A stretch of DNA of 64,000 nt. Origin: Escherichia phage vB_EcoM-E33. The position numbers and the translations under genes were made by a program. Below the pieces are notes generated by a model. It ran no database searches and was not told where the DNA came from. It worked only from the letters and a program-made list of their open reading frames with translations. Positions 1,224-33,908 of this stretch are shown piece by piece (position 1 is the stretch's first letter; each line of letters opens with the position of its first letter). The stretch lies in sequence record OL780484.1, one strand, 5' to 3'.

Positions 1224-1241
1224 AAAAAAGGGCCGAAGCCC
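1224..1241 (-). terminator. rho-independent terminator after wac
   Basis: Minus-strand RNA forms GGGC-UUCG-GCCC hairpin followed by UUUUUU, immediately after the wac stop. Confidence 0.55.
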
Positions 1242-1246
1242 TTTTA

Positions 1247-15914: not shown

Positions 15915-17702
15915 TTAACCGACCTGTACGTTGCCACCAGATACTTTAGCTAATGAACCGCCATCCATATGCACAGTATTTGATGCGTTTAAATTAATGT
16001 TCGTCGCTGCAAAATTTAAATCTTGTTCGACATTTACATCCATATTTTGAGCATTGATTGTGGCCTTTTGTTTAACGCTTATATCTGCATTCTGGTTGAC
16101 ATTAACTGTTGTATCTTTTTCAACCGTAATATATGCTTCTTGTTCAACAGTTATATCAGCAGTACCCATAATAACTATTTTAACATTTCCTTTAACAAGC
16201 AGAGTTCCATTACCTTCTACAGTTTTGGTTTCATTCCCTCGAATATGAATGCTTTCAGACCCATCAGTTTGACGGCGCACGTTTGCCATATTATAATAGG
16301 TTTCATCGCCACCAACGTTGACTTTATTATTACCACCAACATAAGTATTTGAATCGCCTTGGGTCATATAATAACCATCGGCTACCGTCTTAGAAGTTTT
16401 ACGTCCATCAGGAGCAACTTCTTCATAACTACCGGTAGGATGGATTAAACGGTATCGTTCTTGCCCTGGGGTATTATCGAATTCTTGGATATGCCCGCCT
16501 TCAGTTTGCATGGTTTGGACATATGGATATTCGCCTTTATAACTAGAATCAGGTTCTTTAAAAAGAATCCTTGTGTCTTCTGGAGTCCACGGGTCGGCAG
16601 GGTCTGAATTTGTAGGGGCCACAAAGGTTTGAATCATTCTATACGAACGGCCATTAAATGACCTTTCTTTAGGGGCCATAATACCATATGATTCCATGTT
16701 ACCTGTGAGGATAATCATTGACACCCTTGATGCGCGACCTTTAGTTTGGTTAAACCATACTGAATTACGAGCTTCCTCAAATGCCTTTTTATAATCGCCT
16801 ATTAGCATTGCACTAAGCATTCCACGGAATTTAGCCAATCCACCTAATCCCATTTGGAAAGCCATGTTTTCAAGAGCCATTTGTCTTGAACGGTTTTCTT
16901 TATTGTAAACAGGACCTACAACACTATGCCGACCTATATCGTTTTGGACTTTTTTAAGGTCTTCTTGGAATAATTTAGAAGCCTCATCCATTGATATTGC
17001 ACCAGGGTTGCCTTTAACTTCTCGTCCTACCTGATTAGATAATATTTTGTTTATTCGATTCATATCTCTAATAGGTTGTGGTGTGATAAGGTGGCCTATA
17101 CCTATAGTAGGATAACCTTCGGTATCCCAATATACCTTCAGTCTAAGCCCTTCATCACGATGAAGCATGTTTTCTATTGTGAAATTAGGATTATCGTCTG
17201 GTTTGACTTGACTTAAATCCAACCCGTCAGGATTAATACCTACATCAGTGTTTGCATCTTGTATTACGTTAGAAGTGGCATCGTATCCAACTTCACCACC
17301 TCGGTTTAAAGCAGCAGCATCGTTACCTAAATAAAGCGGATATTGGCCTGTAGGGTCACTAAACCCTTCATTAGGATTAGCCTTCTGTCTTGAAGCGGAA
17401 CCGTATGTACCAAGGACAAGTCCGTTTAATTTCCACTTATCAAGAAAGTGACCATAAACTTGTGTACCGGGGACCATACCAGTCATAGCGGTTTGGATAC
17501 CTGAAACAGAGGCAGAAGATGTAGGCATTAATACCGACATCCATGGTAAATCTTCTGTACGAAGGCCTTTTACAGGGCCTTGTACTTTTTCATATGGATG
17601 CATACCCCATACGCGCACGCGTACTCGGCCTTGTTGGAGTGGGTCCATACGGTCTTCAACCACCCCTACGAACCAACTGACATTATCAGACATGTTAATC
17701 AT
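15915..17702 (-). CDS. 5: baseplate hub/cell-puncturing spike with lysozyme domain gp5
   Basis: 595 aa; N-terminal WFVGVVEDRMDP; lysozyme motif DEGL..WDTEGYPTIGIGH; C-terminal repetitive VxVxQ beta-helix segment. Confidence 0.92.
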   Translation of the reverse strand: MINMSDNVSWFVGVVEDRMDPLQQGRVRVRVWGMHPYEKVQGPVKGLRTEDLPWMSVLMPTSSASVSGIQTAMTGMVPGTQVYGHFLDKWKLNGLVLGTYGSASRQKANPNEGFSDPTGQYPLYLGNDAAALNRGGEVGYDATSNVIQDANTDVGINPDGLDLSQVKPDDNPNFTIENMLHRDEGLRLKVYWDTEGYPTIGIGHLITPQPIRDMNRINKILSNQVGREVKGNPGAISMDEASKLFQEDLKKVQNDIGRHSVVGPVYNKENRSRQMALENMAFQMGLGGLAKFRGMLSAMLIGDYKKAFEEARNSVWFNQTKGRASRVSMIILTGNMESYGIMAPKERSFNGRSYRMIQTFVAPTNSDPADPWTPEDTRILFKEPDSSYKGEYPYVQTMQTEGGHIQEFDNTPGQERYRLIHPTGSYEEVAPDGRKTSKTVADGYYMTQGDSNTYVGGNNKVNVGGDETYYNMANVRRQTDGSESIHIRGNETKTVEGNGTLLVKGNVKIVIMGTADITVEQEAYITVEKDTTVNVNQNADISVKQKATINAQNMDVNVEQDLNFAATNINLNASNTVHMDGGSLAKVSGGNVQVG

Positions 17703-18301
17703 AGCGCTTTTTCCATTTCTCTAATTAAAGCGGAAACAAAGGACTCGATGTCATTAGGGTCTATAATCTTTATTTCGCGCTTATATTCATTTTTACGAAT
17801 GGCGTCCTCGTAAATATCTACTGCAGCCAAAGGACCTTCATATTGAGGATAACGTTTTTCTGTATCACCTTTATCGTACCAAGTATAAGGATTTTCCGGA
17901 GTATTTACTAGATTCCAGAATTTCTCACCCTTTTCATTGACATGATAAAGGACTTGGTTTCCGCCTGCAGTAGCATAACGTTGAATAGCTGCTTGATACG
18001 CAGATTCTTGGCCTGTAATCCAGCCGTAATAAGGGTCATAGATATTGTTACACATTAAAAGGACCCAATATAATTGCACGTTACCATAAAGTTGATGGGC
18101 TAATTCTTCTGGACGAGGGGCCCCACTGATATAATATGTTTTAAGTGTATAATTTTTAGCCACTTTATCAAAATATTCTTTATAGTTTCTAAATATATCA
18201 GTCATCGGTACGCTCAGTACATCGGCATCAGTTAATGAGCCCGAATCCGGCTTGACTGTTTTTGATTCATAATTGATAGGATCGAAAAATGAGAAGAGCA
18301 T
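17699..18301 (-). CDS. 53: baseplate wedge protein gp53
   Basis: 200 aa; MLFSFFDPI..MTDIFRNYKEYF..YWVLLMCNNIYDPYYGWITGQE match T4 gp53. Confidence 0.9.
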   Translation of the reverse strand: MLFSFFDPINYESKTVKPDSGSLTDADVLSVPMTDIFRNYKEYFDKVAKNYTLKTYYISGAPRPEELAHQLYGNVQLYWVLLMCNNIYDPYYGWITGQESAYQAAIQRYATAGGNQVLYHVNEKGEKFWNLVNTPENPYTWYDKGDTEKRYPQYEGPLAAVDIYEDAIRKNEYKREIKIIDPNDIESFVSALIREMEKAL

Positions 18302-18346
18302 AGTGCCTCCGAGTATAAATAATATTAATATTTATAAGGAGGCACT
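18302..18346. promoter_or_regulatory. divergent late promoters (TATAAATA on both strands) inside a palindrome
   Basis: Plus TATAAATA at 18314-18321; minus TATAAATA (plus tatttata) at 18329-18336; flanked by inverted repeat agtgcctcc / ggaggcact that carries the Shine-Dalgarno (SD) sequence of each divergent gene. Confidence 0.6.
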
Positions 18347-18796
18347 ATGGCCTACTCAGGGAAATTTAAACCTACAAACTTACAAAAATATAAAGGTGAT
18401 TGGAAGAAAATCCAATATCGTTCCTCTTGGGAAGCATGGCTTATGCGTTGGCTTGACAACCATCCTAATGTCGTCCAGTGGAACTCGGAAGAGGTTGTGA
18501 TTCCATATTTTAGTAACGCTGATGGAAAGAAACGTCGGTATTTTATGGACTTCTGGGTGAAGTTCGACAATGGTCAACAATTCTTTTTCGAAGTCAAACC
18601 TTTTAAAGAGACCCATCCTCCAGCGGCGCCTGCTAAAATGACTACAGCTGCTAAAAAGAGATATATCAACGAACATTATACATGGAGTGTAAATAAAGAT
18701 AAATGGAAAGCTGCTAAAGCTACAGCAGATAAAATGGGAATTAATTTCAGATTGATTACCGAAAACTCACTGAAAAAATTAGGATGGAAAGGATGA
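18347..18796 (+). CDS. 4: head completion protein gp4
   Basis: 149 aa; [41 protein letters not shown] match T4 gp4. Confidence 0.88.
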
Positions 18797-19620
18797 GTAT
18801 ATTTTCTTACATCAACGAGGCTACTGAAACTACAAAAGGTTCCAAGCCTACTCGTTCAGAACAACAATGGATAACTTTAGGCGTTGAATATGCCAACGCT
18901 AAGGCTAAAGGTGTTTCGGCTAAGAAATTCGCTGAAGATAAAGGCATCAAGTATTCTAGCTTTACATCTGCGATGTCTCGATACTCGAGTCGAATTAAAA
19001 CTGCTGTACAGGTTGAAAAACTTCAGAAGAAACCTGGCAATAAATTAACCAAAGCAGAACGTCAATTAATTTTGGTGAATAGTTTTAGAAAGAGTATTCG
19101 CGATAAGATTGCTAACGAAGGCGCTGCCGTAAACAATAAATCAGCTAAATGGTTTACAGAAACATTAAAGAAAGGAATTCGTGGACACCAGGTATCTAAA
19201 CCGTCTCCTGGTAAGCTTTATGCTTATATCTATGATGCCAAACATAAGGATACCCTACCATACTGGGACAAATATCCTTTAATAATTTATCTTGGGTTAG
19301 GTAAGCATAATTTAATGTACGGACTGAACTTACACTATATTCCACCTAAAGCACGTCAGCAATTTCTGGAAGAATTGCTGAAGCAATACGCGAGTACGCC
19401 TACCATTACGAACTCGACTAAATTAAAAATCGATTGGAGTAAGGTAAAAGGATTCGCTGGCGCCGACGTGATGATTAAGGCTTATATCCCTGGAAATATT
19501 AAGGGACCTTTAGTAGAGATAAAACCGTCTGATTGGGCTAATGTAATAGGATTACCACTTCAGCAATTTGTATCGAAAGGTAAGCGTTATTCAGCTCAGA
19601 AAGTTTGGAAGAAGGCATAA
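18784..19620 (+). CDS. 2: probable gp2 (DNA end protector), assigned by position
   Basis: 278 aa basic protein between gp4 and gp3, size close to T4 gp2; alternative start ATG 18793 overlaps the gp4 stop (ATGA); no motif recognised. Confidence 0.55.
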
Positions 19621-20270
19621 TGAATTACCAGAAAATATATTCTTCATTAATTACACGTGCTCAAGGACGAGCACTATCCTGTTATACCGAATCTCATCAT
19701 ATTTTACCTAGATGTATGGGTGGAGGTGATGAATCTACAAACTTAGTTGATTTAACTCCTGAAGAACATTATTTAGCACATCAACTATTAGTTAAAATGC
19801 ATCCAGGACATCCTGGTCTAACTTTTGCAGCTATGACAATGACTCAAGGCCCTCGTCGTTCTAATAAGCTTTACGGCTGGCTTAAACGTAAGCACTCTGA
19901 GAATATCACAGCAACCCAAACAGGAAAGGTTTATTATAATAATGGCAAGAAGTGTATTAAGCTGTTTCCGGGTGAACCGATTCCTGAAGGATTTGTAAAG
20001 GGACGAGGATGGAGTCCTACAAAAGGAACCACTCATGATAGGAATAATGGCCGTTTTGCCAATAAAGAACTCCAAGCGGAGCTTTCTAAACGGAGATGGG
20101 ATAAAGCCAGAAAGGAAACTTGTGAACAATTTGGTGTGGATACTATAGAAGAGGCCAAGGATATGGTTCGGGCATTTAAAGCTACATGCCACGAAAGATA
20201 CTGGATAAAACCAACTATAGCCAAATGGCCTTTTATGACACCAGTAAGACTACGTGAATTTATAAAATAA
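19620..20270 (+). CDS. HNH homing endonuclease (free-standing), copy 1
   Basis: YTESHHILPRCMGGGDESTNLVDLTPEEHYLAH is an HNH motif; start taken at ATG 19620 overlapping the gp2 stop (TAATG); ORF track start 19605. Confidence 0.8.
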   Translation: MNYQKIYSSLITRAQGRALSCYTESHHILPRCMGGGDESTNLVDLTPEEHYLAHQLLVKMHPGHPGLTFAAMTMTQGPRRSNKLYGWLKRKHSENITATQTGKVYYNNGKKCIKLFPGEPIPEGFVKGRGWSPTKGTTHDRNNGRFANKELQAELSKRRWDKARKETCEQFGVDTIEEAKDMVRAFKATCHERYWIKPTIAKWPFMTPVRLREFIK

Positions 20271-33383: not shown

Positions 33384-33413
33384 TATAAATACCTCCTATA
33401 CTCAGGAGGTATT
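33384..33413 (+). promoter_or_regulatory. late promoter TATAAATA plus SD-sequestering hairpin of gene e
   Basis: TATAAATA 33384-33391; atacctcct (33389-33397) pairs perfectly with aggaggtat (33404-33412), which contains the e gene SD. Confidence 0.7.
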
Positions 33414-33908
33414 ATGGATATTTTTGATATGTTACGTCAAGACGAAGGTCTTGATTTAAATCTTTATAAAGACACTGAAGGTTATTGGACTATTGGCATT
33501 GGCCAATTGATTACTAAGAACCCTTCTAAAGATGTTGCTCGTGCTGAACTTGATAAGCTTATGGGTCGAGTTTGTAATGGTCGTATTACTATGGCTGAAG
33601 CTGAACAACTCTTTAACCGATCGGTTGAAAATGCTCGTAGAGCTATTCTGCGTAATCCTAAATTGAAACCTGTTTATGATGTACTGGACGAAGTTCGTCG
33701 TTGTGCTTTAATTAACATGGTCTTCCAAATGGGTGAAGCAGGCGTAGCAGGGTTCACTAACTCTTTACGTATGCTCCAACAGAAACGTTGGAACGATGCG
33801 GCAGTTAACCTGGCTCAATCCCGTTGGTATAAACAAACTCCTAATCGTGCTAAGCGCGTGATTTCAACATTTAAAACAGGTACTTGGAAAGCATATGAAA
33901 ACTTATAA
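33414..33908 (+). CDS. e: endolysin (T4 lysozyme e)
   Basis: 164 aa; [30 protein letters not shown]...[31 protein letters not shown].. near-identical to T4 lysozyme; catalytic E11, D20, T26 present. Confidence 0.95.

Follow-up and report, generated by a model that had tools for sequence, protein, structure and literature searches.

A face-to-face pair of predicted T4-type late promoters between genes 53 and 4 of Escherichia phage vB_EcoM-E33, and the probable by-product origin of its palindrome

In Escherichia phage vB_EcoM-E33, the divergently oriented genes 53 and 4 are separated by 45 nt, and the two ends of this gap are inverted copies of one another that enclose a late promoter consensus on each strand. 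The locus raises the question of whether the palindrome is a regulatory structure or whether it follows from the placement of the same short signals on both strands of a very small space. A first-pass annotation had described it as a mirror-symmetric late promoter unit in which a late transcript would start within the AT-rich loop and leave its ribosome-binding site free, while read-through RNA could fold into a stem. The locus was analyzed here within a 64,000-nt stretch of sequence record OL780484.1, referred to below as the window. The reading we favor, to which we assign a probability of about 0.8, is that the gap is a compact, interleaved, face-to-face pair of T4-type late promoters and that the palindrome is mostly a by-product of the signals packed into it. 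The same estimate covers the view that the perfect 12-bp arms, although statistically unusual under a constrained null model, are one neutral haplotype of a Dhakavirus subclade and not a selected structure.

The genome is that of a JS98-like Dhakavirus of the T4 type. Over 901 bp around the site, it has 99.6% identity to Shigella phage PSD9 and to Escherichia phage LHE83; for JS98, the value over the same stretch is ∼91%. The gene order, with genes 5 and 53 on one side of the gap and genes 4, 2, and 3 on the other, is the same as in T4 and JS98. Together with the Pfam matches listed in Table 1, this synteny bore out the identities that had been proposed for the two flanking genes. Gene 53, on the minus strand, begins at 18301, and its start codon appears as CAT at 18299-18301. 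While gp4 matches its JS98 counterpart at every residue, gp53 is only 96% identical to that of JS98; it is 99.5% identical to the QL01 protein and 98.5% identical to that of vB_EcoM_005, a phage whose gp4 is only 93% identical. Because gp53 and gp4 differ in their closest relatives, these comparisons suggest that a recombination boundary lies in the gap or close to it.

The gene 53/gene 4 junction is also the only coding-strand switch within the window, and both a minimum of the cumulative GC skew and a sign change of the AT skew are located there (∼17000-19000). This is consistent with the placement of T4 oriE near a region of transcriptional divergence (PMC3016281). A sigma-70-type promoter antisense in gene 5 (Table 1) aligns with the T4 oriE early promoter, TTGATG-17-TATAAT, and is the only evident origin of early plus-strand RNA that could extend into gene 4. 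A 45-aa open reading frame (17543-17680, plus strand) is separated by 22 nt from the start of gene 5, like repEB in T4, and its product is 38% identical to RepEB. From these similarities, an oriE-type module appears to be conserved in Dhakavirus.

Table 1. Features of the gene 53/gene 4 junction and its surroundings, in window coordinates.
Feature	Position	Strand	Basis or details
Sigma-70-type promoter TTGACG-17-TATAAT, antisense in gene 5	16269-16297	plus	11/12 matches; context, not part of the unit
Gene 53, baseplate wedge subunit gp53, 200 aa	17699-18301	minus	ORF; Pfam PF11246 (Phage_gp53), E=1.2e-72; synteny with T4 and JS98
Full imperfect inverted repeat	18290-18358	both	21-nt arms, 86% complementary, reaching 9 nt into each coding region
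Gap between gene 53 and gene 4, 45 nt	18302-18346	both	sequence
Gene 53 translation initiation region (left arm)	18302-18310	minus	GGAGG (complement of 18306-18310), then 4-nt spacer CACT
Late promoter box TATAAATA (P4), driving gene 4	18314-18321	plus	predicted +1 at 18327, leader 20 nt
Inter-box segment atattaa, 7 nt	18322-18328	both	holds both predicted starts (-13 to -6 rule)
Late promoter box TATAAATA (P53), driving gene 53	18329-18336	minus	predicted +1 at 18323, leader 22 nt
Gene 4 translation initiation region (right arm)	18338-18349	plus	GGAGG 18338-18342, spacer CACT, ATG 18347-18349
Gene 4, head completion protein gp4, 149 aa	18347-18796	plus	ORF; Pfam PF08722; 100% identical to JS98 gp4

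From left to right, the gap and its two start codons read CAT-AGTGCCTCC-gag-TATAAATA-atattaa-TATTTATA-a-GGAGGCACT-ATG, and the coordinates given earlier for the gap, the arms, and the boxes proved correct throughout. When both start codons are included, the inverted arms, CATAGTGCCTCC and GGAGGCACTATG, match without exception along 12 bp (18299-18310 and 18338-18349). Each consists of GGAGG, CACT, and a start codon, and thus is the Shine-Dalgarno and start context of the gene on its side, as had been recognized at first sight. The description of the gap as a mirror-symmetric palindrome needs to be amended, however. The 12-bp inverted arms are real, but the symmetry is that of a dyad (an inverted repeat) rather than a mirror, and it is imperfect: arm and neighboring box are 3 nt (gag) apart at the left end and 1 nt (a) apart at the right, which offsets the symmetry centers of the arms and of the boxes by 1 bp. 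The interior of the gap includes 24 bp composed of A/T only (18314-18337). Among the 67 start contexts in the window, GGAGGCACTATG is found only at genes 53 and 4, and a search of the window for a second copy of the arm motif returned none.

T4 late promoters are marked by TATAAATA at positions -13 to -6 (PMC1524935). They have no -35 element, require no site-specific activator, and accept A at -13 as a variant, and a downstream A/T-rich segment melts (PMC2988020). As the first-pass annotation had claimed, a perfect copy of the octamer is present on each strand of the loop. Each copy is followed by an A/T-rich segment, is spaced such that the ribosome-binding site remains in the leader (25 and 27 nt from box to start codon), and lies 5' of the orthologue of a T4 late gene at a site conserved in relatives. 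Perfect TATAAATA octamers occur only six times in the 64 kb, and five of the six sit 21-26 nt 5' of a start codon that is preceded by a ribosome-binding site. Matches to WATAAATA are depleted in the window (10 sites versus 17.7 expected, with at least 10 in 100 of 100 shuffles), and all 10 point along the local genes, a pattern suggestive of selection against late promoters in stray positions. Given the rarity of the motif, two boxes placed 7 nt apart in a 45-bp gap are not a chance occurrence. On the grounds of consensus, position, and conservation, which also underlie the assignment of their use, we regard the two boxes as convincing candidate late promoters for genes 4 and 53. The GenBank and RefSeq records of T4 contain no promoter features at the 4/53 junction, and a full-text literature search for T4 start-site mapping returned nothing usable; a review cautions that activity has not been demonstrated for every one of the 50 T4 late sites listed (PMC2988020).

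When the -13 to -6 rule is applied, both predicted starts fall within the 7-nt inter-box segment, and each predicted late RNA therefore lacks the opposite arm. This agrees with the earlier proposal that late transcripts would start inside the loop. The predicted initiating base is an A for both genes, and the two predicted transcripts overlap by 5 nt. In the arrangement that we propose, gp55-RNA polymerase would recognize the promoters together with gp33 and the gp45 sliding clamp. The pair is located where the virion-gene cluster passes from one coding strand to the other. P4 would fire rightward into gene 4 from ∼18327 and P53 leftward into gene 53 from ∼18323, such that each box would fall among the opening nucleotides of the transcript of the opposite gene and would supply the A/T-rich melting region downstream of the other box. 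Each late mRNA would then carry a 20-22 nt leader with a strong GGAGG ribosome-binding site. The crossing layout can be ascribed to compaction, because each promoter needs ∼30 nt 5' of its ATG and the gap offers only 45 nt, and the dyad symmetry to the placement of TATAAATA, GGAGG, and ATG on both strands within these 45 bp. Because the melted regions of the two promoters coincide, it is likely that they cannot be occupied at once.

To place the unit among its relatives, the corresponding junctions of T4, RB69, six Dhakavirus haplotypes, Escherichia phage VR20, Enterobacter phage CIP9, Citrobacter phages CF1 and Moon, Salmonella phage CGG4-1, and Acinetobacter phage Acj61 were compared. In every lineage, a plus-strand TATAAATA directed toward gene 4 was found to the left of a minus-strand TATAAATA, or of its A(-13) variant AATAAATA, directed toward gene 53. 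The plus-strand box is invariant (12 of 12 aligned lineages), and the minus-strand box has one or the other of its two forms in all lineages in which genes 53 and 4 are adjacent. The separation of the boxes ranges from 6 to 11 nt and is most often 7: N7 in T4, RB69, five Dhakavirus haplotypes, and CGG4-1; N7 and N6 in CF1 and Moon; N10 in VR20 and CIP9; and N11 in Acj61. The pair is thus present across at least eight genera, and a short BLAST search with the 89-nt core matched 402 phage records. In a metagenomic relative (L033), an HNH gene is inserted between the unit and gene 4, and the box pair is intact beside gene 53. Eighty environmental T4-like loci collected by profile search were left out as uninformative about the unit, because their gene 53 is either over 1 kb away from gene 4 or undetected in the fetched flank; three Aeromonas-type loci (L020, L021, and L026), which have a different upstream gene, were also set aside.

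The window itself contains an HNH-like open reading frame (19605-20270, plus strand; 217-221 aa; motif HHILPRCMGG) between genes 2 and 3, where JS98 has an 86-nt gap. It had no Pfam match. Its product is 39% identical (E=8e-37) to that of the L033 open reading frame (885-1538) inserted between the late promoter unit and gene 4. It is probably a mobile homing-endonuclease gene of a kind that lands beside late promoters.

Paired divergent late promoters are already known, and the RB69 pair has been predicted in print. Additional file 5 of Nolan et al. (2006) lists overlapping predicted late promoters Pl:80613(+) and Pl:80684(-), both within the gap that separates gene 4 (start 80626) from gene 53 (start 80688) in RB69. 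The comparison with the T4 gene 4/53 region, which had been suggested at the outset, yielded the same box pair at the same N7 spacing. Both the T4 and the RB69 junctions have the same genes in the same divergent orientation, the same TATAAATA-N7-TATTTATA crossing, and leaders of 20-23 nt (in T4, 21 and 23 nt) that carry GGAG(G) as the ribosome-binding site. They differ from the present junction in that their arms have only GGAG/CTCC in common; the T4 hairpin reaches -14.7 to -17.6 kcal/mol, as opposed to -33 kcal/mol here, and in RB69 the gene 53 side is longer by 17 nt, the gap measures 61 nt, and gene 53 has a TTG start codon. Two other T4 gaps of ∼50 bp also have late boxes on opposite strands. 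At inh/segE (T4 112021-112042; L117 12021-12042) the boxes cross as they do here, with N6 spacing, whereas at 26/51 (T4 116429-116478; L117 16429-16478) the boxes of the two divergent genes are arranged back-to-back with a 4-nt overlap in a 12-nt palindrome, TATTTATAAATA. Unlike the junction studied here, both gaps serve other genes and are devoid of long GC-rich arms. The RB69 prediction and the T4 pairs at 4/53, inh/segE, and 26/51 indicate that the unit is the orthologue of a described arrangement and one instance of a general T4 design.

Divergent promoters of bacteria reportedly fall into three classes as defined by Beck and Warren: back-to-back, overlapping, and face-to-face. In the face-to-face class, each -10 element is said to lie within the region transcribed from the other promoter and the 5' ends to overlap by a few nucleotides, much as in the phage unit. 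The phage promoters are nevertheless distinct in being gp55-dependent, in having no -35 element, and in being activated by a sliding clamp and not by site-specific regulators.

The feature that makes the gap conspicuous is its capacity to fold. RNA from the gap region folds at -32.9 and -33.6 kcal/mol for the two strands, with z ∼ -8 relative to dinucleotide shuffles, and none of 200 shuffles folded as well as the native RNA; the single-stranded DNA folds at -17 kcal/mol. The predicted late leaders, by comparison, fold at -7.6 (gene 4) and -7.5 (gene 53) kcal/mol. In silico, then, the fold-energy calculation that had been proposed indicates that read-through RNA could form the stem, at about -33 kcal/mol with the ribosome-binding site and AUG paired, and the much weaker folding of the late leaders fits the idea that the Shine-Dalgarno sequence is left free in late RNA. 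The question is how much of this energy comes with the signals themselves. A constrained null in which the boxes, GGAGG, and the start codons were held fixed and the fillers were randomized already folds at -21.3 to -23.7 kcal/mol, versus -12.7 kcal/mol for a full shuffle, so roughly two thirds of the hairpin energy is automatic. The perfect arms add ∼10 kcal/mol, for which P is about 0.0007-0.007 under the constrained null. Hairpins of other Dhakavirus members (-25 to -28 kcal/mol) are located in the upper tail of this null, which makes some selection for pairing within this genus conceivable. The energies are -18 to -25 kcal/mol in VR20 and CIP9 and -13 to -16 kcal/mol in CF1, CGG4-1, and Acj61. 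A search of Rfam 15 found no family, the single match being a chance hit to a miRNA precursor at 20.8 bits versus a gathering score of 60. Unpaired probabilities of the ribosome-binding site and AUG were noisy and did not cleanly separate the positive control, gene e, and our judgement was therefore based on energies and on the conservation of pairing. The late leader of gene 53 pairs weakly with its own codons 2-3.

The conservation of pairing did not sustain the regulatory meaning that the first-pass annotation had implied for the stem: the arms are not conserved beyond GGAGG/CCTCC, their variable sites assort freely, and the hairpin is weak in T4 and several genera. The identity between the two arms averages 5.3-6.3 of 14 positions within a lineage, versus 5.8 (sd 2.3) between arms drawn from different lineages. 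Six arm haplotypes are found in Dhakavirus, without compensatory changes among them. Position 18304, on the gene 53 side, is polymorphic (T/G/A) with no compensating change in the other arm, the spacer on the gene 4 side varies between CACT, CAACT, and CGACT, and KIT01 has an uncompensated arm mismatch. Other Dhakavirus genomes have GGAGGCAACT or GGAGGCGACT at the gene 4 initiation region. Perfect arms are present in 14 of ∼51 Dhakavirus records and are limited to one subclade, in which this form has been retained even though the flanking genes differ by about 5%. The perfect palindrome thus looks like a lineage-specific variant for which the comparative data give no evidence of selection. One conjecture is that it arose by templated quasi-palindrome correction, with one base lost from a GGAGGC(A/G)ACT ancestor, a route that would fit the haplotypes.

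A hairpin that covers a start codon nevertheless calls to mind the T4 genes e, soc, 49, and I-TevI, in which such a structure acts as a translational mask. In these genes and in Aeh1 mobE, the position of the late promoter leaves late RNA without the 5' strand of a stem in which longer RNAs pair their ribosome-binding site (PMC3014915), and the geometry of the 53/4 gap fits this logic on both strands, with a stable helix over the start in silico and a predicted late RNA that lacks its 5' strand. If the hairpin were a mask, most plausibly for gene 4 only and mainly in Dhakavirus, early read-through RNA would hide the GGAGG and AUG of gene 4 in the stem, and late RNA initiated in the loop would be translated. 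Such masking is well established in T4 (PMC3014915). The difference between -33 kcal/mol for read-through RNA, with the ribosome-binding site and AUG paired, and -7.6 kcal/mol for the late leader is in its favor, as is a stem energy above that of the constrained null. The sigma-70-type promoter in gene 5 is a strong one on the correct strand and matches the T4 oriE early promoter in position, and the terminator-like sites that separate it from gene 4 are all weak. The pairing itself is not kept among relatives, however, as judged from arm identity, uncompensated polymorphisms, and weak hairpins elsewhere; compensatory changes are absent and the arm haplotypes assort freely. The stem energy is no better than -14.7 kcal/mol for T4, and for the CF1, CGG4-1, and Acj61 lineages it is -13 to -16 kcal/mol; in those weak-stem lineages the start region is predicted to be equally accessible in late and read-through RNA. 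Whereas T4 e, soc, 49, and I-TevI have a dedicated 5' arm and similar leaders are predicted in close T4-type phages (PMC3014915), the 5' arm here is the opposite gene's ribosome-binding site and its pairing is not conserved. For e and I-TevI, early transcripts that run into the gene are on record (PMC3014915), but for gene 4 they would have to come from 2 kb upstream and are only conceivable. Early synthesis of a head-completion protein would also seem to have no obvious cost, unlike that of a lysozyme or a nuclease. As for gene 53, the 45 kb of the window that lie beyond the unit on its right contain no minus-strand late box, and T4 early and middle RNA is all of the polarity opposite to the gene 53 strand (PMC2988020), so a source of read-through for that strand was not found. 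Masking is therefore considered unlikely. A more elaborate version, restricted to the QL01/WG01/PSD9 subclade, would make the perfect arms a working switch: oriE-like early plus-strand RNA would enter gene 4 untranslated, with the neighbor's ribosome-binding site masking gene 4's own, the two promoters would be mutually exclusive, and one 45-bp module would combine bidirectional late initiation, translational insulation, and promoter competition. We view this version as quite improbable.

Selection could also have acted on the interleaving itself, with a shared melted region that lets one promoter fire per DNA copy and the orientation of the tracking gp45 clamp setting how much gene 4 is transcribed relative to gene 53. 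With boxes 7 nt apart and predicted starts 4 nt apart, the polymerase footprints would have to overlap; the N6-N11 crossing is conserved across genera and recurs at T4 inh/segE, and the junction combines a strand switch with a GC-skew minimum beside an oriE-like promoter. Genome compaction alone predicts the same layout, however (∼30 nt per promoter in a 45-nt gap), T4 26/51 uses a back-to-back overlap for the same problem, and RB69 tolerates a 61-nt gap, and we consider it improbable that the crossing was selected as such. It is highly improbable that the palindrome functions at the DNA level, as an operator for a dimeric protein, a cruciform, or a recombination site. The perfect dyad symmetry over 12 bp, the DNA hairpin of -17 kcal/mol per strand, and the differing closest relatives of genes 53 and 4, which suggest a nearby recombination boundary, could be taken as signs of such an element. 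Yet the arms vary between and within genera, with only the ribosome-binding cores in common, the arm motif has no further copy in the window, and T4 late promoters need no site-specific activator (PMC2988020). The operator and cruciform possibilities were rejected because the arms are not conserved. An intrinsic terminator, or an insulator against antisense transcripts, is hardly credible. It would draw on the UUUUU that directly follows the extended stem in minus-strand RNA, but these residues belong to two adjacent, conserved Phe codons of gene 53 (MLFSFFD), the plus strand is without a U tract, and the site was not called by a terminator scan. The junction is moreover divergent and not convergent, with no minus-strand promoter upstream, and the terminator was discarded as a candidate on these counts. 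We are thus left with the interleaved late promoter pair as the reading that best accounts for the gap.

Several other structures in the window combine hairpins with late boxes. At gene e (lysozyme, 33414-33908, plus strand), TATAAATA stands directly before CCTCC, whose pairing partner is the ribosome-binding GGAGG (33384-33416); a structure of the gene e type is known to block translation from early transcripts (PMC3014915). Elsewhere, GC-rich, terminator-like hairpins with T runs are located at ∼24672-24702 (plus strand) and ∼1224-1245 (minus strand). They lie immediately upstream of late boxes at 24704-24711 and 1214-1221, respectively, and form terminator-then-late-promoter tandems.

Overall, the first-pass annotation is partly supported: the promoter assignment and the start geometry hold as predictions, while the regulatory stem is unsupported. 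The locus offers a caution for the reading of such structures, as the same short signals on opposite strands yield an impressive hairpin (z ∼ -8) without selection, according to the comparative data. Should the masking reading be true after all, gene 4 would join the short list of T4-type genes for which structure blocks the translation of early read-through RNA. In any case, the 53/4 unit is an ordinary and known component of T4-type genomes. Its value for discovery is small, but it is useful as an annotation anchor that marks the strand-switch point of the virion-gene cluster beside an oriE-like region.
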